Below the pieces are notes generated by a model. The model was given only the letters and a program-made list of their open reading frames with translations, was not told the DNA's origin and made no database searches. A stretch of 64,000 nucleotides of DNA from the IMG/VR virus record IMGVR_UViG_3300020450_001133; one strand, given 5' to 3'. Made by a program: the position numbers and the translations under genes. This stretch comes from a virus (taxonomy: Duplodnaviria; Caudoviricetes). The stretch's first letter is position 1. The number at the start of each line of letters is the position of its first letter. This document shows positions 79 through 56,960 of the stretch, piece by piece.

Positions 79-891
79 TTACTCTTTGCTGTTTTTAATA
101 TCTTCTATTCTTGAAATCTGTTCTTCTGTTAGGTTTGGACTTACAACTTCCACTACAACAATAAGGTTTCCTGCCCTACCATTATTAGGATTTGGCATAC
201 CTTTTCCTTGTAATTTTAGTTGTGATCCAGGGTTTGTTCTTTTAGGCACTTTTATATCTAGTTGCTTATTATCCAATTGAGTAACTCTTACTTCAGTGCC
301 AGTCATTGCTTCTAAATAATCTATCTGTACTCTACAATATAAGTCATCGCCTCGTCTATCCCATTCAGGTGGATTGTGTATAAAACATCTAACAATTAAA
401 TTTCCTGGTGGTAATCCTTGATGTTCTGTTGGACCTTTACCAGGCATATTAAATTTAGTACCATGTCTGGTTCCTGCAGGTATAGTAATTTTAAATGTAC
501 CATATCCTGTGTTTATCATTTTTTCTACACCATGATAAACTTCATGTAATTCTAAATGTAAGTCTACTACTCCGTCAGGGTTCCTTGTTGGCTGTCTTTG
601 TTGCTGTCTAAATCCACCCCCAAATATTTCTTGGAATACATCTCCAAAGTCTCCTCTGAAGTTAAAGCCGCCTTGACTAAATGGGTCGCCGCCTTGGAAT
701 GGATTTGGATTATCGTATTGCTGACGTTTTGCAGGATCGCTAAGAGTTTCGTATGCTTGTTGTATTTTCTTAAATTCATTTTCATCTCCACCTTTATCTG
801 GATGATGTTTACCCGCAAGTTTACGATAGGCTTTTTTAATTTCCTTGTCGTCTGCTTGAGGTGATACACCTAATGTTTGATAATGATCCAT
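79..891 (-). CDS. dnaJ: DnaJ class B (CbpA-like) co-chaperone
   Basis: J-domain with HPD (KHHPDKGG), G/F-rich linker, C-terminal substrate domain, no CxxCxGxG zinc finger. Confidence 0.95.
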
Positions 892-15564: not shown

Positions 15565-15828
15565 TTAGCACCCAGTATCGTTTGGGTCAAATCCTAAGTC
15601 TTCATCAGATGTTTCACAACTGTTACAACATTCATCAGTACCACACTTGTCATGCAATACGCCATCTTCATCGTAACCATGTTCGTCAACCTTCTTTTTG
15701 GAACTGGATAGATCCTCGCCATAACGTCCACGGTCTCTGTTACCATCGCCGTTTAGTTCTGTTGCATCTTGTTGAACTTCCTTAAAATCCTTTTTAAGTT
15801 GTACTTTCTTTACTTGCACCTTCGTCAC
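15565..15828 (-). CDS. Hypothetical acidic Cys-containing protein (GTG start 15828)
   Basis: SD AGGAG before GTG; C-terminal [13 protein letters not shown]. Confidence 0.6.
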
Positions 15829-16414
15829 TCCTTTTCTCAATGATTTCGTCAGCAAGACCAAACTCTAGTGCTTCTTCGCTAGTCATAAAGTTATCTCTAT
15901 CCATAGCAGTTTCAAATTCTTCGTAAGTTTTGCCTTTACTGTTGTGCTTGACATATATCTCTGTCAACTCTGTTTTAATTCTTTCTAATTCCTTAGCACG
16001 AATTATAACATCACTAGCCTGACCGTTTGCACCACCTAATGGTTGATGTATCATAGTCCTGCTTTTAGGCAATAAAAATCTTTTACCTTCAGTACCTGCT
16101 TGTGCAAGTAGGCTTCCCATTGAAGCCGCTTGTCCCATTACAATAGTAGAAATATCTGGTTGTATATACTGCATGGTATCATACATTGCCATTCCACTTG
16201 TAACTGCACCACCAGGTGAGTTAATATAAAAACTTATATCAGCAGTTGGGTCTTCTGCTTCTAAGAAAAGTAGTTGAGCACAGATACTGTTTGATACTGA
16301 GTCCGTTACTTCTCCATTCAAGAATACAATTCTTTCTTTAAGCAGTCTACTGTAGATATCATAACTACGTTCTCCTGCTGACGTCTTTTCTATTACATAT
16401 GGTACAAAATTCAT
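15794..16414 (-). CDS. clpP: ATP-dependent Clp protease proteolytic subunit
   Basis: [30 protein letters not shown] (catalytic Ser), MIHQP (His), DRD. Confidence 0.98.
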
Positions 16415-28853: not shown

Positions 28854-30051
28854 CTACTACACTCACTGCGGCACTTCTGCCACCAAATCCAAAACTAGTT
28901 TTAAACAGCCTTGTGTATTCTTTTTCTTCTATTTGAGACAATAAATTAAAATAACCATCTTCTGTAAATGGTTTTACTAAATTTGCATTTGCAGGAACAA
29001 ATCCTTGCTTCATTGCTTCTGCACCTAATACTACTTCTGCTAATCCACTAGCACCCATTAAATGGCCCACTTGACTTTTATTTCCGTACAAGTGACTTCC
29101 CTCTGGAAAATAATCTTTCAACACGTTGTATTCTACAGGGTCACCAAATGGTGTACTAGTAGCATGAGCATTTAATACATTATAGTCTACAGCACTGGTA
29201 CCTGCTTGTGATAATGCTTTATCAATAGCAATCCTGGCACCAGTGCCTTCCAAATCAGGCTGGGTAGCATGAGCACCATCGTTCGCTATCCCGATGCCAT
29301 CTACTACCCATCTGATATTTGCTCCCCTCTCCCTAGCAAGTTCTAAAGGTTCAACTACCAGATAAACTGTACCCTCGCCCATAACAAAACCATCTCTACT
29401 TTCGTCCCATGGTACACTTCTACCTGTTGGACTTATTGCTCCTAACAGTTGAAAGTATATTGTACTCATAGAACTAGTCATAAAGTCTGTTGCACCTACA
29501 ACGGCACAAGTATATTCTTCTGTCATCATATACTTTTTGGCAAGGTCTAATGCTTGTACTCCACTAATACATGTACCACTTGTACCCATACTGGCACCAT
29601 GCCATTTGTAATGACTACTTACGTGATTACTAACGTATTCGTGTGAACTACTTAATAAAATTTGGGGGTGTACTTTGCGTCTTTGTTCATGTAGTATTTG
29701 TCCATACCTTGCTAGGTTTGGTGCACCTCCTCTGATAGTGCCCACAAATACTGGAGTATTGTCTGGAAAATCTAAGCCACTCATTTCTACTGCTTCATTT
29801 ACAGCAATCATGCTGGTAATAACAGTAGGATCTAACCAACGTTTATCTTTTGCTTTTATTAAATCTTCTAAATCAACATCTTCATAGTTACAATGAAATG
29901 CTTTTTCTACATTCAAAATCCAATCACTAAAATGACCTTGTGGTTTATAATCACTAATTGGAACTTGTAGAGCCTTTAAATTTTGTATGTTTTCGAAGAG
30001 ATTATTGCCTAAAGGCGAAACAATACCCACTCCGGTGATAGCGAGTTTCAT
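28837..30051 (-). CDS. fabF: Beta-ketoacyl-ACP synthase (FabF/FabB-type)
   Basis: GTCISG (Cys), NAHATST and GHLMGASG (His-His), GFVMGEG, SFGFGG; TAAATA 5 nt before ATG. Confidence 0.9.
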   Translation of the reverse strand: MKLAITGVGIVSPLGNNLFENIQNLKALQVPISDYKPQGHFSDWILNVEKAFHCNYEDVDLEDLIKAKDKRWLDPTVITSMIAVNEAVEMSGLDFPDNTPVFVGTIRGGAPNLARYGQILHEQRRKVHPQILLSSSHEYVSNHVSSHYKWHGASMGTSGTCISGVQALDLAKKYMMTEEYTCAVVGATDFMTSSMSTIYFQLLGAISPTGRSVPWDESRDGFVMGEGTVYLVVEPLELARERGANIRWVVDGIGIANDGAHATQPDLEGTGARIAIDKALSQAGTSAVDYNVLNAHATSTPFGDPVEYNVLKDYFPEGSHLYGNKSQVGHLMGASGLAEVVLGAEAMKQGFVPANANLVKPFTEDGYFNLLSQIEEKEYTRLFKTSFGFGGRSAAVSVVDEREV

Positions 30052-43794: not shown

Positions 43795-44235
43795 TTATGA
43801 TATTTTTATCTTTTGTGGTTTCATAGCATCAGGTACGTTCCTGAACAATGAAACTCTTAAAATACCATCTTCTAGTTTTGCTGATTTTACTTCTACAAAC
43901 TCTGCTAGTTTGAATGTTCTAGTAAAGTTTCTTTCAGCAATACCTTTATGAAGATACTCAATTTCATCTGAATCTAATACAGCAGATGTACCTGATATTT
44001 TTAAAGTACCATCTTCTATTTCAATTTCGATGTCATCTTTCTTAAAACCTGCAACGGCTAAAGTTATTTCATATATGTCATCTTTGCCTTTGCTGATATT
44101 AAAGGGTGGATACCCTGTTGCGTTATTTGTGAAAGTAGGGTCGTTAAAGAATTGCTCTGCAAGTCTATCAAAGCCTACGGACATTTTATATAGTGGGGAT
44201 AGTGATTCGGTTGTGAATCGGATTTGCTTATTCAT
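43795..44235 (-). CDS. Small heat-shock protein Hsp20 (IbpA-like)
   Basis: GYPPFNI, LAVAGFKKDDIEI, YLHKGIAERNF.R.F.L, LEDGIL. Confidence 0.96.
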   Translation of the reverse strand: MNKQIRFTTESLSPLYKMSVGFDRLAEQFFNDPTFTNNATGYPPFNISKGKDDIYEITLAVAGFKKDDIEIEIEDGTLKISGTSAVLDSDEIEYLHKGIAERNFTRTFKLAEFVEVKSAKLEDGILRVSLFRNVPDAMKPQKIKIS

Positions 44236-46451: not shown

Positions 46452-46715
46452 TTAAGAAGTGGCAAGTGATTTGTACCCTGCGGCAATAACGGCTCTAGAA
46501 GCAGTACCTAGTCTGTAAACATTTCTAGTTCTACCTTTAGTGTCAGTTACCGTGTTAAGGTAAATTGGATAACCTTTGAAACGTAGTGATTGAATCACTG
46601 CTTGTGGGTTACCAGCACCAAAATGTGCTTTGATTTGAGCTGAACTTAAAGTTCTGCCTTCTTGTAGAGCTGAAAGTACTTTCATCTCTTTACTTACGAA
46701 TGTTGTTGTAGTCAT
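46452..46715 (-). CDS. Winged-helix DNA-binding protein (start moved to ATG 46715)
   Basis: SD AGGAGG; KVLSALQEG.TLSSAQI...GNPQAVIQSLR..GYPIY...YRLG. Confidence 0.75.
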   Translation of the reverse strand: MTTTTFVSKEMKVLSALQEGRTLSSAQIKAHFGAGNPQAVIQSLRFKGYPIYLNTVTDTKGRTRNVYRLGTASRAVIAAGYKSLATS

Positions 46716-46810
46716 ATGACCTCCTAATTTCAACAAACCAACTAATCTAAATATAAAATTTTTCATAGTCTTTTTAATTATGTTAAGGACAATTCCTTAA
46801 CTTACTCACT

Positions 46811-46838: not shown

Positions 46839-47314
46839 CCTTTTTTTGACATTAAATATGTTTCGTTATGAATCCACTTGTTTTTCTTGATAAATCCCCA
46901 TTCTCTAACACGTGGACCTACAAAAAATAATGTCCAAACGTCAACACCAGGCTCTAATTCTATACGGTGTAATGACTTACTACCAGCAAATCTCATACTT
47001 CCTGCTTTACGCCAAAACTTTCCTTTGGGTGTGTATTCCCAATATCCACCTTTAAGTATGATTGTGAAGTAACTCCAAGGATGGTCATGTAGGTCATCTG
47101 GGTCACCTTTATGAAAATTATGTAGGAAAAAATTAAAAGGGAACCATTTTCTATCTTTTAGGAATACATAATACCTAGTTAGATATGGTTCTTGGTGTAT
47201 TCGGTCCAGTATTATTCGTTTTCTACCAAACCTTTCTAGTAGATTAAGAAGAATTTTCATGTTCTGCAACTCTCTGTCTGAGACTGGTACTGCTAAAACT
47301 ATGGTCTCTGCCAT
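46835..47314 (-). CDS. Cupin-like phage protein (true start probably the internal MKILL)
   Basis: LHNFHKGDPDDLHDHPWSYFTIILKGGYWE...LHRIEL. Confidence 0.75.
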   Translation of the reverse strand: MAETIVLAVPVSDRELQNMKILLNLLERFGRKRIILDRIHQEPYLTRYYVFLKDRKWFPFNFFLHNFHKGDPDDLHDHPWSYFTIILKGGYWEYTPKGKFWRKAGSMRFAGSKSLHRIELEPGVDVWTLFFVGPRVREWGFIKKNKWIHNETYLMSKKG

Positions 47315-47690
47315 TGAATACTAATTTAATATTCCTGTCTTTGCAGATTTGCTTACCAGTGAATTGTTTATCTTTGTATTCAACTCCTAACACTCTAACA
47401 TTTATAGGAAGTGTTAAAAGTAAATCCTCTAAATCTTGCTCTGTTGCGTAACATACTATTTCATCTACATATTTTACAGCCGCCAACTGTATTTGTCTTT
47501 CTACTAAACTTTGTACTGGCGGATTTTTACTGTCTGGTCTGTCTATTGTAGGATCAGTTTGCAATCCTACTATCAAAAAATCACAATGTCTTTTTGCTTC
47601 TTCAAGCATTGTGATATGACCTGCATGTAACAAATCGAATGTACTACAAGTAAATCCTATTTTGCCACAATCTTTATAACTGAGTCTCAT
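47244..47690 (-). CDS. Cytidylyltransferase, glycerol-3-phosphate CTase-like
   Basis: STFDLLHAGH (HxGH), LIVGLQTDP, ER..QL.AVKYVDE, R.HSFSST.LR. Confidence 0.9.
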   Translation of the reverse strand: MRLSYKDCGKIGFTCSTFDLLHAGHITMLEEAKRHCDFLIVGLQTDPTIDRPDSKNPPVQSLVERQIQLAAVKYVDEIVCYATEQDLEDLLLTLPINVRVLGVEYKDKQFTGKQICKDRNIKLVFNGRDHSFSSTSLRQRVAEHENSS

Positions 47691-48127
47691 GCAAAGTCCT
47701 TTAACATTTTTTTGATTTCTAATGCGTGTTGTTCTTCTTGTCCAATTTGTCCTCTAGCATATTCTTCTAAATACACACTGGCACCTTCTACTTCAGAAAG
47801 TAGTTCTTTATATAAATTAACTGCATGAGTTTCATGTTCTAAACTTTCTTGTAATATTTGAACAATGCTATGGTCATGTGATTCCACAATTGGTGCTATA
47901 ACTTGACTAGGATGTCCGTCTAAGCCTGTAATTAATTCTCCGGCTTGTAAGGCATGTTGTAAACTTTCATTTGCTTGTTCTTGCAAAAATGTTACAATAG
48001 GAATCCTGTAAGGTCCAGTAATCATTAACGAACTATGTGCGTATCTGACAACTCCAGCCATTTCATATTCCACTATTGAATTAAGTATCTCACATACTTT
48101 ACTTTGGTTTAATTCTTTCAATTCCAT
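47687..48127 (-). CDS. Bacterioferritin/ferritin-like protein
   Basis: E(MAGVVRY)...ESLQH...EHE...EEQH di-iron pattern. Confidence 0.8.
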   Translation of the reverse strand: MELKELNQSKVCEILNSIVEYEMAGVVRYAHSSLMITGPYRIPIVTFLQEQANESLQHALQAGELITGLDGHPSQVIAPIVESHDHSIVQILQESLEHETHAVNLYKELLSEVEGASVYLEEYARGQIGQEEQHALEIKKMLKDFA

Positions 48128-48897
48128 TATTCTCCGTTATAATAATGAAGACGTTCTATATCATCTTCACTGGTCTCATCACCATATTGTATTTCAATAA
48201 TGTGACATGGTTTATCATTTCTATTAACAATTTGATGCCAATCATTTGCTTTCACATGAAAATTATCATCTTGTTTAAGAGTTACATTTGTAAAGTTGTC
48301 TGGATTACTAGCACTATACTTTACTTCGCATTCTCCTTTACTGACAAACCATATTTCACTTCTTTTAAAGTGACGTTGATAACTGATACCTTTCCCTGGT
48401 TCAATTATCAACTCCTTAACTTTTACTACTTCATCTTGGAACAAATCACTAAATTCGCCCCAAACCCTTCTAGTAGTTGGATATTGCCATTCCTTTAGTA
48501 TCCAACTGCTACTGTTTGATTTATTGGAACCTCCAACACCAAACACAAATTCAACGCCTTCAACAATCATTTCTGGAATGTTATCTTTTGTTCTATCACC
48601 TCCGTTGCAAAAGATAATTTCTGCATGTTCATATGCCTTCTTGGCATTTTCCAGAGCCTCAACTGCTGAGCCGTCTTTATCATCGAAACCCCAAACATTG
48701 TCTACCATGTCCATTGTTTCTAGAATTCTTGCCCTCTCTTCGAAAGGCATAAAGGGCCTGCCTTTTTTTCTTGTGAGCCACTCATCGCTATTAAGTGCTA
48801 CAACTAGTTTGTCTCCTAATTGTTTTGCTCCTTCTAAGTAGTCTATATGTCCAGAATGCAGTGGATCAAATCCACCTGATACGACTACTACTTTCAT
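48127..48897 (-). CDS. Cytidylyltransferase fused to a cupin (mannose-6-P isomerase type C-terminus)
   Basis: SGGFDPLHSGH, NSDEWL.RKKG, NGGDR; C-terminal RVWG...ISYQRHFKRSEIW...WHQI.N. Confidence 0.88.
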   Translation of the reverse strand: MKVVVVSGGFDPLHSGHIDYLEGAKQLGDKLVVALNSDEWLTRKKGRPFMPFEERARILETMDMVDNVWGFDDKDGSAVEALENAKKAYEHAEIIFCNGGDRTKDNIPEMIVEGVEFVFGVGGSNKSNSSSWILKEWQYPTTRRVWGEFSDLFQDEVVKVKELIIEPGKGISYQRHFKRSEIWFVSKGECEVKYSASNPDNFTNVTLKQDDNFHVKANDWHQIVNRNDKPCHIIEIQYGDETSEDDIERLHYYNGE

Positions 48898-49325
48898 TAG
48901 AAGTTACCACGACTTCTCTGCATAGCGGCTATCCTTTCGTTGTATTCTCTTACTCGCCTTGTTTTACGTTTGGACTTCATCCATTTTTGACCAGTGGGCA
49001 TGTATTGTTTAAAATCGCCTCTTGCTTCGGCTTCTCTAACATACTTGTCCCATCTCTTTTTGGCTTGTTTCTTTTTACGATTTCTTTTTGCACTAGGCTT
49101 TTCGTAATATTGTTGCTTTGCTAATTCCTTTTGGAATTCTGCTTTTTCTAATCTCTTTTTCAAAACTCTTAATGCCTTATTCACGTCGTTGTTTCGAACT
49201 TCAATAGAACTATTGAATTTGTCCAGATAATGTTTATCTTTCTTAGGTTGTTCTTTCCTTTTATTGGAGTTCCAACCTTGCGTTATCTTTCTACTTTGCT
49301 GTCTGCCTTGCGATTTATTACTCAA
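48897..49325 (-). CDS. rpsU: Ribosomal protein bS21 with N- and C-terminal extensions
   Basis: Core IEVRNNDVNKALRVLKKR......KEL....YYEKPSAKR.RKK..A.KR. Confidence 0.85.
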   Translation of the reverse strand: MSNKSQGRQQSRKITQGWNSNKRKEQPKKDKHYLDKFNSSIEVRNNDVNKALRVLKKRLEKAEFQKELAKQQYYEKPSAKRNRKKKQAKKRWDKYVREAEARGDFKQYMPTGQKWMKSKRKTRRVREYNERIAAMQRSRGNF

Positions 49326-50590
49326 CTTTTACCTCTAATTTTTATTTTATAATCTTTATCCGATTTTTCATTACCGTTAGTATAAACGAAAACAGGGTAA
49401 GTGTCAACATCTTTTGTTGGATATTTGTTGAATCTCACCGTTTTGACCCCATTTTCTTTTAGTTTAGGTGCTCTGTACATAATGTTGTGTAAACTGTTTT
49501 CTACTATGGATTTTAATCCTCTAGCACCAGTTTTTGTTTTACTAGCCAGTTTTGATATATCATCTATGTACTCATCATTAAACTCTAATTCTATATCATC
49601 AAACTCTAAAAGTTTTTTAACTTGTGGAATAACACTTGCTTTTGATGATTTTAAAATTGTTTTCATATCGGATTGTGATAATGGTTCTAAAGGTACAATG
49701 TTTGGTAATCTACCAACAAGTTCTGGAATGAGACCATAACTGATTAAATCGTCATGCTCTACTTTGTGTTGCCAATTGTCTTTTTTGGTTGTTGATTTTA
49801 ATTGTTTGTTGAATCCTATGTTCTTTTTGTTTGCCTTAGTGTTTATTTGTTTTTCTAAACCTACAAATGCACCACTACATATAAACAATACATTTGTTGT
49901 ATCAAACTCTACATATTGGTCCATACGTTTTGAACCGTTAGAAGATACTTTAACTACTGTACCTTCAATTAATCTTAGGAGTGCTTGTTGTACACCTTGT
50001 CCACTAATGTCCTTTGTGCCGGTGTTAGACTCGCCCTTACGAGCCTTTTTATCTATTTCATCTATGAATACAATACCTTTTTGTGCTAGTTCTAAGTTCC
50101 AATCGCACATATTAAGTAAACGTTCAAGCATACTTTCAACATCTTCCCCAACATAACCTGCTTCTGTTAATGTTGTAGCATCAGCAATAGCAAAAGGTAC
50201 ACTTAATTTATCTGCAAGTGTCTTTGCTAATAAAGTTTTACCTGTTCCTGTATTACCCAATATAATAATGTTACTTTTTTCTATATCAGTTTCACTATCA
50301 TTGTAAATTGTTTTGTAATGATTGTATGCACATACAGATAATATTTCTTTTGCATACTCTTGGCTAATTACATATTCATCAAGATGTGCTTTGATTTCTT
50401 CTGGAGTTGGGATATCTTCGAAGGATAAGTCTTCTAATGTATCTTCTTCATTGATAATTTTATGACTGATGTTAATACATTCGTTACAGATGTAAGAATT
50501 AGGACCTGCTATTAACTTTTTTACTTCAGTTCGCTTTTTACCACAAAAACTACAACTTAGATTTTGTTCGTTGTCTCTATCACCGGGCAT
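49322..50590 (-). CDS. clpX: ClpX unfoldase
   Basis: CSFCGK...ICNEC zinc domain, GNTGTGKT, GYVGEDVE, IDEIDK, IGF loop, GARGL. Confidence 0.97.
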   Translation of the reverse strand: MPGDRDNEQNLSCSFCGKKRTEVKKLIAGPNSYICNECINISHKIINEEDTLEDLSFEDIPTPEEIKAHLDEYVISQEYAKEILSVCAYNHYKTIYNDSETDIEKSNIIILGNTGTGKTLLAKTLADKLSVPFAIADATTLTEAGYVGEDVESMLERLLNMCDWNLELAQKGIVFIDEIDKKARKGESNTGTKDISGQGVQQALLRLIEGTVVKVSSNGSKRMDQYVEFDTTNVLFICSGAFVGLEKQINTKANKKNIGFNKQLKSTTKKDNWQHKVEHDDLISYGLIPELVGRLPNIVPLEPLSQSDMKTILKSSKASVIPQVKKLLEFDDIELEFNDEYIDDISKLASKTKTGARGLKSIVENSLHNIMYRAPKLKENGVKTVRFNKYPTKDVDTYPVFVYTNGNEKSDKDYKIKIRGKS

Positions 50591-51426
50591 TATTTCCTCG
50601 TAACATAATTTGTATCTGTTGTGTCATCATCTGTGTCGTTTGGTAATGGTACTGCCCAAAAGCCTCCCAACTGTTTATTTACATCTTCTTCGCTTAATTC
50701 CTGTAACATCTTGAGTATTTCATCAGTGGATAAATCATTTACATTCATTTCACTATTTGCTATTAATGTTGCCGCAGTTCTAAGGTCTCCTGTGTTAGGC
50801 AATTCTACTCTTACTGCACGTCTAGGACCTTCAACAATCTTTTCTTTAACCGGTCTCTGTTCTAATTTGTTTTCTAACTCTGCAACTAAGGCTGTGAGTC
50901 TATCTATTTCTCTATTGTCAGTTCTTACAACAACTCTTTCAGGACCTTGTATAAGTTTTTCTACAACTTTTTCTACGGGTACTTCTACCTTTACTTCTTT
51001 TTCAACAATTTTTTCTACAATCTTTTCAACAGGTACTTCTACTTTTATTTCTTTTTCAACTATTTTTTCAACAGGTACTTCTACTTCTTTGATAACTTCA
51101 ACTTCTTTGATTACTTCTACTGGAACTTCTTTGATTACTTCGACGGGAACTTCGACGACTCGTTCTGGTCCTGGCACTTCGACGATTCGTTCTGGTCCTG
51201 GGACCTCTTTTTCGATAGTGACCAACTTCTCCTCTGGGACAAGGATCTCCTTCTCAACTGTGACAACCTTTTCGACCTCAACTTGCACTTCCTTAGGCTT
51301 TTTAGCCAGTTCGTTTTCTAAATGTTCTATTTGATCCAAAGCATCATCTAACATTCCTAATGTGTTAGCATACTTTGTATTTAATACATTTATTGCTTCT
51401 TTAACTGTTATCTTCTTTTTTGCCAT
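50590..51426 (-). CDS. V/E/K/P repeat protein (articulin/alveolin-like repeats)
   Basis: Tandem VEVPVEKIVEK, VPVEVIKE and VPGPERxVE units. Confidence 0.75.
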   Translation of the reverse strand: MAKKKITVKEAINVLNTKYANTLGMLDDALDQIEHLENELAKKPKEVQVEVEKVVTVEKEILVPEEKLVTIEKEVPGPERIVEVPGPERVVEVPVEVIKEVPVEVIKEVEVIKEVEVPVEKIVEKEIKVEVPVEKIVEKIVEKEVKVEVPVEKVVEKLIQGPERVVVRTDNREIDRLTALVAELENKLEQRPVKEKIVEGPRRAVRVELPNTGDLRTAATLIANSEMNVNDLSTDEILKMLQELSEEDVNKQLGGFWAVPLPNDTDDDTTDTNYVTRK

Positions 51427-52816
51427 CTTTTTTAAGTTTCTTTTCTAGTCGTTTTTCTAATTCTTTAATAGCAGGTGGTGTGCTTAAATCTATTTCTGCT
51501 TCTACTTCTTTTTCAACAACAACTTCTTTTTCCACTTCCTTAATGACTTCTACTGGTACTTCTTTGATAACTTCTTTTTCTACAATCATAGGTGCAGGTT
51601 GTTTATAACCTGACATGACATCTGCCGCATCATCTACTGCACTTGGTGGACTAGGTTGTCTTGGTAAATCTGGAGAAGTTTCTTCTTTTAATTGGTCTCG
51701 CAAATCAGGTCCTGTTTTTTCCAAGTTAATACCATAACGTAATAATGTTTGGTTGGCGGCTATAATTAATACAACTGCTAATGGATCGAATACAAACACT
51801 AGCATTAATATAAACAGTCTTACTGCTTGGTCCAAATAACTTTCAGTATCTTCGCCATATATTAGTTGTGCAACATACTTAATAGGACCTACTTCTTTTT
51901 CTAAGTTTCTTACAATACTTTCTGCTTCAAACTTTTCATCTTTTAATATCACAATGTTGTCATATATTTCATCAATTTGTGTATTGTAATCATCTATCTT
52001 AATGATATTTTCATCTTGTTGACTGCTGTTTTGATTTCTTAATCTGTTTATTTCGACGTTAGCATCGTCTATTGTTTTTTGGGCCTGTTCTCTATACTTG
52101 TCAATGTTGTCTTGTTGAACTTGTATATCTACTCTAATTTGGTCACGTTGTTCTTTTTGTTGTGCAAATAATTCATTTGCCTGTGCTACATAATCAATCT
52201 TTTCAGTTTCTGCTTGTCTAAAAGCACCACCTTCATCTAGTGTTACAACTTCAACACCTTTTTCTCTAAGGTCATTTACTGCTTTGTCTAATACTGCTAG
52301 TTGGTCTCTTAATCTATCTATTTGACCATTTGCATAATCTATATCACCTTGAACTCTTGCCCAAGCACCATCTCTTATTTCTTCTTGTTGTCTTATGCTT
52401 TCGGAAACATCTATACTACCACCTACTCCTAATATCCTATCTTCAAGTAGTGCAATTTTGTTTTCTTCTCTTTCTATTTGTCCATCTATTCTTTCTACTT
52501 TAGCAAAAGCATCGCCTGTTTCACCTGCTTGGTCTAAGTGTGCTTTAGATAGATAACCAAAAATACCCATGCTTGTGATTAACATTAAAACAACCACGGC
52601 TATGGACAAGTATGTTTTTAATAGTAATGAAGTTTCATGCCAGTATCTATACAACCAACTTGCAGTAAGTAACTTACCAACTTCAAGTGTTCCAGCCATA
52701 ATTGCAATAGGAAGTGCTGAGGCACTGAAAATTGCCATAAGTCCTTCAATGGAAAACCATGCCGCAACTCCGGCTATGGCTAAGGCTGTTATTAATGTAA
52801 AGATACCGAATAGCAT
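51401..52816 (-). CDS. Membrane-anchored long coiled-coil protein
   Basis: Three N-terminal TM segments, about 250 aa coiled coil, TM (FVFDPLAV), C-terminal VIKE repeats; TAAATA 5 nt before the ATG. Confidence 0.75.
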   Translation of the reverse strand: MLFGIFTLITALAIAGVAAWFSIEGLMAIFSASALPIAIMAGTLEVGKLLTASWLYRYWHETSLLLKTYLSIAVVVLMLITSMGIFGYLSKAHLDQAGETGDAFAKVERIDGQIEREENKIALLEDRILGVGGSIDVSESIRQQEEIRDGAWARVQGDIDYANGQIDRLRDQLAVLDKAVNDLREKGVEVVTLDEGGAFRQAETEKIDYVAQANELFAQQKEQRDQIRVDIQVQQDNIDKYREQAQKTIDDANVEINRLRNQNSSQQDENIIKIDDYNTQIDEIYDNIVILKDEKFEAESIVRNLEKEVGPIKYVAQLIYGEDTESYLDQAVRLFILMLVFVFDPLAVVLIIAANQTLLRYGINLEKTGPDLRDQLKEETSPDLPRQPSPPSAVDDAADVMSGYKQPAPMIVEKEVIKEVPVEVIKEVEKEVVVEKEVEAEIDLSTPPAIKELEKRLEKKLKKDGKKEDNS

Positions 52817-52887
52817 ACCAATATTTATCGTATTTTTGCAACCAATTAAACAATACTGATTACATAAACTATCCTGTTAATGCATAA

Positions 52888-52908
52888 AACCCCCATAACT
52901 AGGGGGTT
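52888..52908 (-). terminator. Probable terminator after queD
   Basis: AACCCCC-7nt-GGGGGTTTT. Confidence 0.6.
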
Positions 52909-52930: not shown

Positions 52931-53404
52931 TTAAACGATTTTTTGATGGTCGTTACGTTCTACAGTTGCAGAGTTATGTTCATGTTCTCTGACTGTAACT
53001 TCTTGTACCCAACATCTGCCATCAGTTAAATCATCAACCAAGTCTTGTGCAAAGTCAAATACCTGTTCAGCAAAACGTTCGCAACCAACTGCTGGAACAA
53101 GTCTCATGTCAATAAGATTCTTTTCTTGTAACATTTTAATTGTTTCCAACTCTGGATCATCTTCTGCAACTAGATATGTGTGGTCAAACATATATTTTAA
53201 CCATTCTTTGAGTGGCTTTAATCCACCAAAGTCTACTATCCAATTTCTTTCATCTAATTCACCACCGAACTTCAATTCAAATTGTAGTGCATATCCGTGA
53301 ATTAAATTGCAATGGCTATCTGCTCGCCATTGTCTAAAGGCGCAACTGTGTCCTGTTGCATGACTATAAGTCTTTCCACTGTAAAATCTTTTCTTTACTG
53401 CCAT
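52931..53404 (-). CDS. queD: 6-carboxytetrahydropterin synthase (QueD/PTPS)
   Basis: GHSCAFRQW...SHCNLIHGY, WIVDFGGLK, FDHT, GCERFAE, VREH..N.A. Confidence 0.9.
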   Translation of the reverse strand: MAVKKRFYSGKTYSHATGHSCAFRQWRADSHCNLIHGYALQFELKFGGELDERNWIVDFGGLKPLKEWLKYMFDHTYLVAEDDPELETIKMLQEKNLIDMRLVPAVGCERFAEQVFDFAQDLVDDLTDGRCWVQEVTVREHEHNSATVERNDHQKIV

Positions 53405-53718: not shown

Positions 53719-53746
53719 ATTATACAGAATAGTTATGAAATGTCAA
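53719..53746 (-). promoter_or_regulatory. sigma70 promoter
   Basis: TTGACA-16nt-TATAAT. Confidence 0.85.
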
Positions 53747-55869: not shown

Positions 55870-56925
55870 TTATGTGTTTAGATATTGCAGGTATAGTTGT
55901 TCACTAGCAAGGTTTTTAGCCTTTGCTTCGCATTGAATGTCAAAATTATCAAAGAAACTCAGTGCCCATTCATTAACTTTTTCGTTAGGGTAAAAATCTG
56001 AGTGTGCTCTAAGTTTTTGTTTTTTGCAACCTAAATCCAGTAAGGTTGAAAAGTCATGCATTGTTGTATGTCTACTTCCTGATTCAAACAAGGATGGTTC
56101 AGGTAACCATTCATCCCTGCTATAACTATAATGTAGAGTAGGCCTAACACCACGCCAACTATCAATGACCCTTTTAACACGGTCGTCATCCGCTTGTATA
56201 TATTCTTCATCTCTAATCCAATGGTGATGTATGTCCAACACCAGTGCTAAATGTTTCTCCAATTTTAATGATTCATCAAGTCCGTGACACATTTCATCAT
56301 TCTCGATTGCAATAGTGTTACGAGCCTCGGGTGATAACTTAGGTAGTATATTTATAATACCTTCTGCTCCTTGGCGTCCAGATATGTGTATATTGAGTTT
56401 CATATCCATAAACTCTTGTCCATATCCCATCCAACGTGCCATGCTGGCATGATATTCGAATTCGTCTATACTACGTTCTACTACATCAGGCTTATCACTA
56501 GCAAGGACACAAAACTGCCCAGGATGAAAACTAATACGCACATCCAAATCTTTTGCAAGTTGTCCAACCTTGGCAAATCCATCTTCGAGTATTCGTTGAT
56601 TGTCAGCATCATCCCAAAGATAACGCCAAGTAGGCTCAGTAGCCATAGGTATTTGATTACTTCCAAGTCTTACCATCCTCCGTTCTGCTGGTAAAGTTGT
56701 ACCTACCCATTCAACAAGATTGTAGGCACTTTGCATATTGTGAGTGACCAAATCCAGCATTCTTTCTTCAGCCACATGTTTTTCCTGTCTGTTACACCAT
56801 GCAACTGTTGTAACTTTCTCAGTATAATTTTGTTGTATTTCTTTTAGTATCTTGGGTTTTTGACTCTGGTCAGGATCAAGATACTTACAACAAAAACCAA
56901 TTCTCTTTACAGTAGAATCAAACAT
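55870..56925 (-). CDS. uvdE: UV-damage endonuclease (UvdE/UVDE)
   Basis: IGFCCK, RLGS, SFHPGQF, IENDE, LDIHHH, RPTLHYS, AHSD, EAKAK. Confidence 0.92.
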   Translation of the reverse strand: MFDSTVKRIGFCCKYLDPDQSQKPKILKEIQQNYTEKVTTVAWCNRQEKHVAEERMLDLVTHNMQSAYNLVEWVGTTLPAERRMVRLGSNQIPMATEPTWRYLWDDADNQRILEDGFAKVGQLAKDLDVRISFHPGQFCVLASDKPDVVERSIDEFEYHASMARWMGYGQEFMDMKLNIHISGRQGAEGIINILPKLSPEARNTIAIENDEMCHGLDESLKLEKHLALVLDIHHHWIRDEEYIQADDDRVKRVIDSWRGVRPTLHYSYSRDEWLPEPSLFESGSRHTTMHDFSTLLDLGCKKQKLRAHSDFYPNEKVNEWALSFFDNFDIQCEAKAKNLASEQLYLQYLNT

Positions 56926-56931
56926 GCTGAT

Positions 56932-56960
56932 ATTATATTATATAAAGTAGTCAATGTCAA
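56932..56960 (-). promoter_or_regulatory. sigma70 promoter, leaderless
   Basis: TTGACA-17nt-TATAAT, 6 nt from ATG 56925. Confidence 0.9.

Follow-up and report, generated by a model that had tools for sequence, protein, structure and literature searches.

The minus strand of the window (the whole 64,000-nucleotide stretch of phage DNA that was analysed) carries, directly behind a phage clpX gene, a gene for a ribosomal protein bS21 of 142 residues. bS21 is the ribosomal protein that phages carry most often, and its typical, though not defining, size is ~55-75 residues, so this protein lies beyond the usual range. The genes and features at the locus are as follows.

52890-52905, minus strand: terminator-like hairpin between the clpX-S21 unit and a sigma-70-type unit upstream of it (promoter 53719-53746)
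52814-52828, minus strand: T4-late-type ATAAATA box (52822-52828), 5 nt, then the ATG of a gene for a 471-aa membrane protein
49322-50590, minus strand: phage clpX, 422 aa, with ClpX zinc finger, AAA_2 and D2-small domains
49379-49407, minus strand: possible internal sigma-70-type promoter (TTGACA-17-TATACT, 11/12) in the clpX 3' end
49331-49335, minus strand: Shine-Dalgarno (SD) sequence GAGGT, 5 nt ahead of the TTG start and within the coding end of clpX
48897-49325, minus strand: gene for the extended phage bS21, starting at TTG, 142 codons and a stop
49212-49325, minus strand: N-terminal extension, residues 1-38, with [WF]N, a K/R-rich stretch, PKK and an HYLDKF pattern
49017-49211, minus strand: bS21 core, residues 39-103, with predicted helices 48-73 and 79-102 and the YEKPS motif
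48900-49016, minus strand: C-terminal extension, residues 104-142, a loop with a conserved motif, then a predicted helix (119-139)
48127-48897, minus strand: cytidylyltransferase fused to a mannose-6-phosphate-isomerase-type cupin, its start abutting the S21 stop

The initial annotation had described a 142-aa protein with a recognisable bS21 core, and Pfam bears this out: Ribosomal_S21 (PF01165) matches residues 41-91 (E 5.4e-14; 52.1 bits versus a cut-off of 27) and spans profile positions 2-53 of 55. An alignment of a relatives-based profile with solved bS21 chains from proteobacteria pairs family positions 38-100 with chain residues 2-65. We set the border between core and C-terminal extension at Gly103, where the second core helix ends in sequences of the alphaproteobacterial type. 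This leaves an N-terminal extension of ~38 residues, as originally claimed, and a C-terminal extension of ~39, shorter than the ~45 first given. All parts of the protein are strongly basic, and both extensions are also rich in aromatic residues. The N-terminal extension has 11 K/R and three aromatic residues (pI 10.5); the C-terminal one, which had been called basic from the outset, has 12 K/R and five aromatic residues (pI 11.4).

An AF2 model of moderate confidence (pLDDT 76.8, pTM 0.43) predicts the two core helices (residues 48-73 and 79-102), a further helix at residues 119-139 of the C-terminal extension, where pLDDT is 85-90, and a weak helix at residues 7-24 of the N-terminal extension. 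Because the model was built without rRNA, it is silent on how the arms would dock. Structure searches with this small helical model, by Foldseek against the PDB and by VIA-align against 48,161 chains (best Z 4.3), brought up generic helices, none above noise, and nothing informative on the extensions. Neither extension, searched alone against Pfam at E values up to 10, had a match. A match of the full protein to DUF3323 (22 bits, below the cut-off) was taken as compositional.

The reported position directly downstream of clpX is seen as an actual overlap, the clpX stop and the S21 start sharing four bases (TTGA), and clpX appears to be translationally coupled to S21. Between the TTG start and the core there is no in-frame ATG, GTG or TTG. 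A GAGG-type SD sequence stands 5-8 nt upstream of the S21 start in nearly all syntenic IMG/VR loci, and the position of the start is fixed across them, with TTG, GTG or, in divergent members, ATG as the codon.

The hairpin at 52890-52905, followed by the ATAAATA box, would place clpX and S21 in a late-type transcription unit, with the box at 52822-52828 as the probable start of a transcript running through both genes. The candidate promoter within the clpX 3' end lies ~50 nt ahead of the S21 start. In relatives its -10 hexamer is either kept or becomes TATAAT, despite a change in the encoded residue (Thr to Asn), a pattern suggestive of a promoter that might give S21 separate expression.

The two genes upstream of clpX (50590-51426 and 51401-52816, both minus strand) encode proteins in which short V/E/K/P-rich repeats (VEVPVEKIVEK, for instance) follow one another in long stretches. 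The second product, of 471 aa, has N-terminal transmembrane segments, and both genes also precede clpX in a relative (L084). On the other side, a tightly packed series follows S21 (47244-48897, minus strand): the cytidylyltransferase-cupin fusion, a ferritin/Dps-like gene and a second small cytidylyltransferase. The phage ClpX itself carries the GYVG pore loop and the IGF tripeptide. Further genes of interest lie elsewhere in the window.

15797-16414, minus strand: ClpP (E 9e-78)
82-891, minus strand: DnaJ
43798-44235, minus strand: Hsp20
46455-46766, minus strand: small winged-helix gene
52934-53404: QueD/PTPS gene

ClpP, DnaJ, Hsp20 and ClpX make up a phage proteostasis kit, in which clpP is ~33 kb from clpX; ClpP is also found in relatives. 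The winged-helix protein, of ~105-111 aa, accompanies S21 and Hsp20 both here and in the marine phage HTVC008M. In the Pseudomonas jumbo phage PA5oct a 111-aa hypothetical gene, matched by position alone, stands at the corresponding place. The coordinates in the loci compared are L001 3281-3616 and L083 2680-3015. S21, the winged-helix gene and Hsp20 may be an old module of distant large phages.

Genes in the window use both SD-led and leaderless-type starts. Of 93 crude starts, 30 have GGAG or GAGG between -17 and -4, versus a 3% background, a roughly tenfold enrichment that differs from the genes without SD sites by which the Bacteroidetes type is recognized (Jha 2021; Chen 2022). The S21 and clpX genes are among those led by a strong and conserved SD site. 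The window is also rich in perfect TTGACA-N16-17-TATAAT promoters. A scan for this pattern, with at most one mismatch per hexamer and an ORF of at least 50 codons, found eight sigma-70 promoters with an ATG 6-7 nt past the -10 hexamer, against a chance expectation of 0.06 (mean over first-order Markov shuffles of the window). With five ATAAATA-type cases, there are 13 promoter-then-ATG arrangements in the window, which lend sequence support to the initial claim of many leaderless transcripts.

Starting at 56937, 41753, 36819, 27394, 19770, 16803, 13285 and 903, all minus strand: -10 hexamers of the leaderless-type sigma-70 promoters
61456 (plus strand), 52828 (minus strand), 30063 (minus strand), 5346 (plus strand) and 57679 (plus strand): ATAAATA boxes with an ATG 5-8 nt downstream

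The genes behind the sigma-70-type set include UvdE, SufC and DnaJ. Leaderless-type 5' ends lie at 891 for DnaJ, at 56925 for UvdE and at 30051 for a ketoacyl synthase. Pfam domains begin at residue 2 in DnaJ, residue 3 in the ketoacyl synthase and residue 13 in SufC; as these domains begin so near the N-terminus, the ATGs of all three genes are the true starts. Late genes may be leaderless too, judging from the ATAAATA-type cases. The remaining ATAAATA boxes have 20-34-nt leaders with SD sites.

The co-occurrence of extended bS21 with leaderless richness, raised in the initial annotation, holds descriptively. The density of leaderless-type arrangements per 100 kb is 20 in the window and 16.5 in extended-S21 loci, versus 6.6 in loci with an S21 of 89-97 aa and 1.4 in those with a 79-aa phage S21, a contrast drawn among S21-carrying loci that, coming from one lineage with many near-duplicate loci, counts as a single evolutionary observation. 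An earlier count of 46 leaderless cases in the short-S21 phage loci was an artefact, and 3 in 214 kb remained after filtering. In the loci with a 78-79-aa S21 (L050-L071), many sigma-70-type promoters are followed by ATG-AAA-GG.. and by a second ATG 4-7 codons on; the first ATG lies in a very short SD-bearing leader ahead of the real start, a look-alike of leaderless starts in naive scans.

The S21 core resembles proteobacterial, probably alphaproteobacterial, bS21 (VRDNNV..ALR..KKK pattern, representative matches). Together with the SD enrichment and the sigma-70 promoters, this proteobacterial-type core argues against a Bacteroidetes host and against the model of anti-SD masking developed for Flavobacterium (PMC7797042) and its phages (PMC9723584). 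A Bacteroidetes host with a masked anti-SD was therefore set aside.

To follow the extensions through the lineage, we compared 38 distinct IMG/VR loci in which the order clpX, extended S21, cytidylyltransferase-cupin is kept, the last of these genes being syntenic in every extended-S21 locus. Across the 38 loci identity ranges from 100% to 52% for ClpX and from 100% to 43% for S21. Eleven core residues are invariant among 22 sequences (A51, R53, L55, K56, Y74, E75, K76, P77, R83, K90 and R91). The C-terminal extension has a motif of its own, K-[WFYH]-[ML]-K-x-K-[RK]-K-x-R; in a set of 42 sequences whose overall identity falls as low as 24-31%, K117 never varies, and conservation of at least 90% is seen at G103, K119, R120 and R123. 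Pooled dN/dS (Nei-Gojobori, pairs of intermediate divergence) is 0.27 for the N-terminal extension, 0.14 for the core and 0.30 for the C-terminal extension, at a pS of ~0.5. The initial annotation would have been refuted by extensions that were unconserved or not translated. Given these ratios, the conservation, and the SD sequence and start that stay fixed through the 38 loci, neither is the case: on sequence grounds, both extensions are real, translated and under purifying selection.

The two extensions are also separable. Forms of 110-118 aa have the C-terminal extension with little of the N-terminal one. Marine phage S21 proteins of 89-99 aa have a related N-terminal extension (W/F, a K/R-rich stretch, then PK), lack the C-terminal extension and end right behind the core-terminal 'ARGE'.

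Marine metagenomes (Tara, JGI, ENA) are the source of the 135 homologs that a word-indexed search found, nearly all of them 132-142 aa long. Contigs of 270-340 kb carry identical or related proteins, and identical ones occur on >150 assembled contigs, many from Tara Oceans. Some homologs had been deposited as 'Pelagibacter' or 'bacterium' MAG proteins, evidently from mis-binned phage contigs. A relative of 339,794 bp (IMG/VR, 91% complete) has a single S21 gene, of the extended type. PHROG families are present in the window, which belongs to an uncultured marine T4-like jumbo phage; its lineage, with genomes of ~330 kb, is cosmopolitan and abundant in the oceans.

In an exhaustive profile search of 1.84 billion representatives, ~22 of the 5114 bS21 clusters (defined at 50% identity) align through the C-terminal extension, and all of those that were traced come from marine phage contigs no longer than 340 kb. 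A scan covering 185,579 prokaryotic species, each represented by one genome, found the extended form in no cellular genome. That scan returned three loci, and the C-terminal extension was found on just one of them, a 14-kb MAG contig with full phage synteny. Other S21 forms of 130-160 aa (P0310, P0226, P0245 and others) were rejected as, by their appearance, over-extended calls on GC-rich alphaproteobacterial genes. A search for shorter homologs gave two fragments only, with no host clue.

From these observations we infer, with a probability of roughly 0.6, that the gene encodes a genuine, expressed phage bS21 that replaces the host bS21, and that its basic and aromatic arms tighten incorporation and retune initiation to phage messages. 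The proteobacterial-type core would most likely occupy the normal bS21 site of the host 30S subunit, on the platform and neck by the 16S 3' end and the anti-SD, where the phage copy would displace the exchangeable, late-assembling bS21 of the host. The extensions, ~77 residues in total, would then serve as extra RNA-binding arms. Because of where the bS21 termini sit (PMC7550191, PMC9723584), such arms would extend as far as the mRNA exit region, the SD/anti-SD chamber and the head. The C-terminus is a neighbour of the SD helix and contacts helix h37 of the head (PMC7550191), and the anti-SD is overlain by the N-terminal helix (PMC9723584). A precedent for how an arm of this kind can act is the appended Trp/Arg/Lys helix of Bacteroidetes bS6, which grips the 16S 3' tail (PMC7797042). 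The most likely outcome would be tighter, competitive incorporation, with initiation retuned toward phage messages. As SD-led and leaderless-type starts are both used, no single favoured class of message is evident. The 67-aa bS21 of the pelagiphage HTVC008M is incorporated into E. coli 70S ribosomes, and the resulting ribosomes are nearly inactive in vitro (PMC6375957); incorporation need not, therefore, equal productive retuning.

The leaderless-type arrangements invite a different account, in which ribosomes carrying the extended bS21 favour leaderless phage mRNAs at the expense of the host's SD-led ones, because the protein shifts or masks the anti-SD and occupies the mRNA exit path. We regard this as unlikely. 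It draws on the 13 arrangements themselves (eight sigma-70-type, where chance would give 0.06), on the confirmed N-termini of DnaJ, ketoacyl synthase and SufC, and on the greater density near extended-S21 genes than near shorter phage S21 genes. It also fits reports that bS21 supports the anti-SD in the exit path and that E. coli ribosomes without uS2 and bS21 handle the leaderless lambda cI mRNA better (PMC10491246). In E. coli, however, better leaderless translation goes with a missing bS21 rather than with an enlarged one, and the density contrast is that of one lineage and its near-duplicate loci. Moreover, with SD motifs tenfold enriched at starts and both S21 and clpX SD-led, masking of the anti-SD would harm many phage genes.

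We see a slim chance for a related proposal, in which the arms form an initiation-mode switch: the C-terminal Trp/Lys/Arg motif and helix would hold or displace the 16S 3' tail and so favour leaderless phage mRNAs. Host bS21 would be displaced and the mRNA exit path cleared for 5'-terminal AUGs, leaderless messages from early-type and late-type promoters alike would be favoured, and the phage ClpXP, from the same transcript, might help to remove host factors.

The neighbourhood of the gene could point in another direction, namely that the S21 fold acts outside the ribosome as a free RNA-binding protein or chaperone, or that it is a partner, adaptor or substrate of ClpXP. Every syntenic locus shows the apparent translational coupling of S21 to clpX, and unrelated jumbo phages of Pseudomonas, those resembling PA5oct, likewise have clpX followed by S21. 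Clp genes often lie near bS21 (PMC9723584), and ClpP, DnaJ and Hsp20 are phage-encoded here as well. An extraribosomal role has been proposed elsewhere for bS21, for example in the OLE RNP (PMC12054373). Adjacency of genes alone is nevertheless weak evidence for binding, and a predicted complex of ClpX and S21, run without controls, scored 0.00, which speaks neither for nor against it. PA5oct has the same linkage with a normal S21 of 68 aa, so the linkage to clpX does not account for the extensions. The canonical rRNA-binding core is almost invariant, as would be expected if the ribosomal site were still used, and we consider a role of this kind improbable.

That the extensions are neutral or an annotation artefact, the true start lying further downstream or the tail being read-through, is hardly credible: TTG is a weak start codon, and ribosomal proteins often vary in their small basic tails, with divergent C-termini known in bS21 (PMC9723584), but no in-frame start codon lies between residue 1 and the core, the SD keeps a fixed distance in 38 loci with ATG starts in divergent members, dN/dS is 0.27-0.30 at a pS of ~0.5, and five positions (K117 in all sequences) stay at least 90% conserved down to ~24-31% overall identity.

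If the phage protein does replace host bS21, as we favour, the C-terminal extension may help the phage to take over host ribosomes. The lineage and its relatives provide a natural domain series (core only, N-terminal extension only, C-terminal extension only, both), with which competitive binding and mRNA selection by viral bS21, singly or combined, can be tested, and the same genome offers two built-in classes of reporter, its SD-led and its leaderless-type genes.

Compared with cellular bS21 (E. coli RpsU, 71 aa, and alphaproteobacterial proteins), the phage protein shares the YEKPS/T motif and, by prediction, the two-helix core. The cellular proteins begin 1-3 residues before the core and end ~6-15 residues from the Gly103 position, and neither extension was present in the cellular genomes searched. 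The closest relative in a cultured phage is the 67-aa bS21 of HTVC008M (Mizuno 2019, PMC6375957), with 39% identity over the matched part. HTVC008M is also a marine T4-like phage, and its S21, winged-helix and Hsp20 genes are consecutive. Its bS21, in contrast, is of normal length, without extensions, and follows cobS rather than clpX. A tblastn match reaching upstream of the annotated start had hinted at an N-terminal extension in HTVC008M; this was rejected, the upstream residues being dissimilar and the published peptide confirming the start (PMC6375957). In PA5oct, from another phage family (Arenbergviridae), where the order is QueD, clpX, S21, Hsp20, as in the window, the S21 gene also lies directly behind clpX and overlaps it, but the protein is of normal length (68 aa) and 37.5% identical over 40 residues.

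The bS21 proteins of freshwater Bacteroidetes phages have C-termini conserved within phage clades and Clp genes as frequent neighbours, and late expression has been proposed for them (Chen 2022, PMC9723584). The lineage described here shares these traits. Those genes, however, belong to a capsid/terminase block, whereas the present one lies in a clpX/proteostasis block. They also mimic Bacteroidetes bS21, in which the aromatic Tyr54 masks the anti-SD, and belong to hosts that lack SD sites; the present phage has a proteobacterial-type core and uses SD sites and consensus sigma-70 promoters. In F. johnsoniae, Tyr54 stacks on A1534; W92 and Y96 of the present protein lie in the relevant helix and are at most candidate counterparts.

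Among huge phages, bS21 has been proposed to substitute for the host protein, with its N-terminal extensions aiding competitive binding or selective initiation (Al-Shayeb 2020, PMC7162821). Genomes >200 kb and an N-terminal extension with K/R and aromatic residues are common to those phages and to the present lineage, which differs in being marine, T4-like and clpX-linked and in having an additional, conserved C-terminal extension of ~39 residues with its own motif and predicted helix. No description of a long C-terminal extension of phage bS21 was found in the literature searched. Phage bS21, N-terminal extensions, clade-conserved C-termini and Clp neighbours are already published. What appears to be new is the long, motif-bearing C-terminal extension, its pairing with an N-terminal extension into a protein of double length, the tight coupling to clpX in a cosmopolitan lineage of marine jumbo phages, and the leaderless-rich setting.
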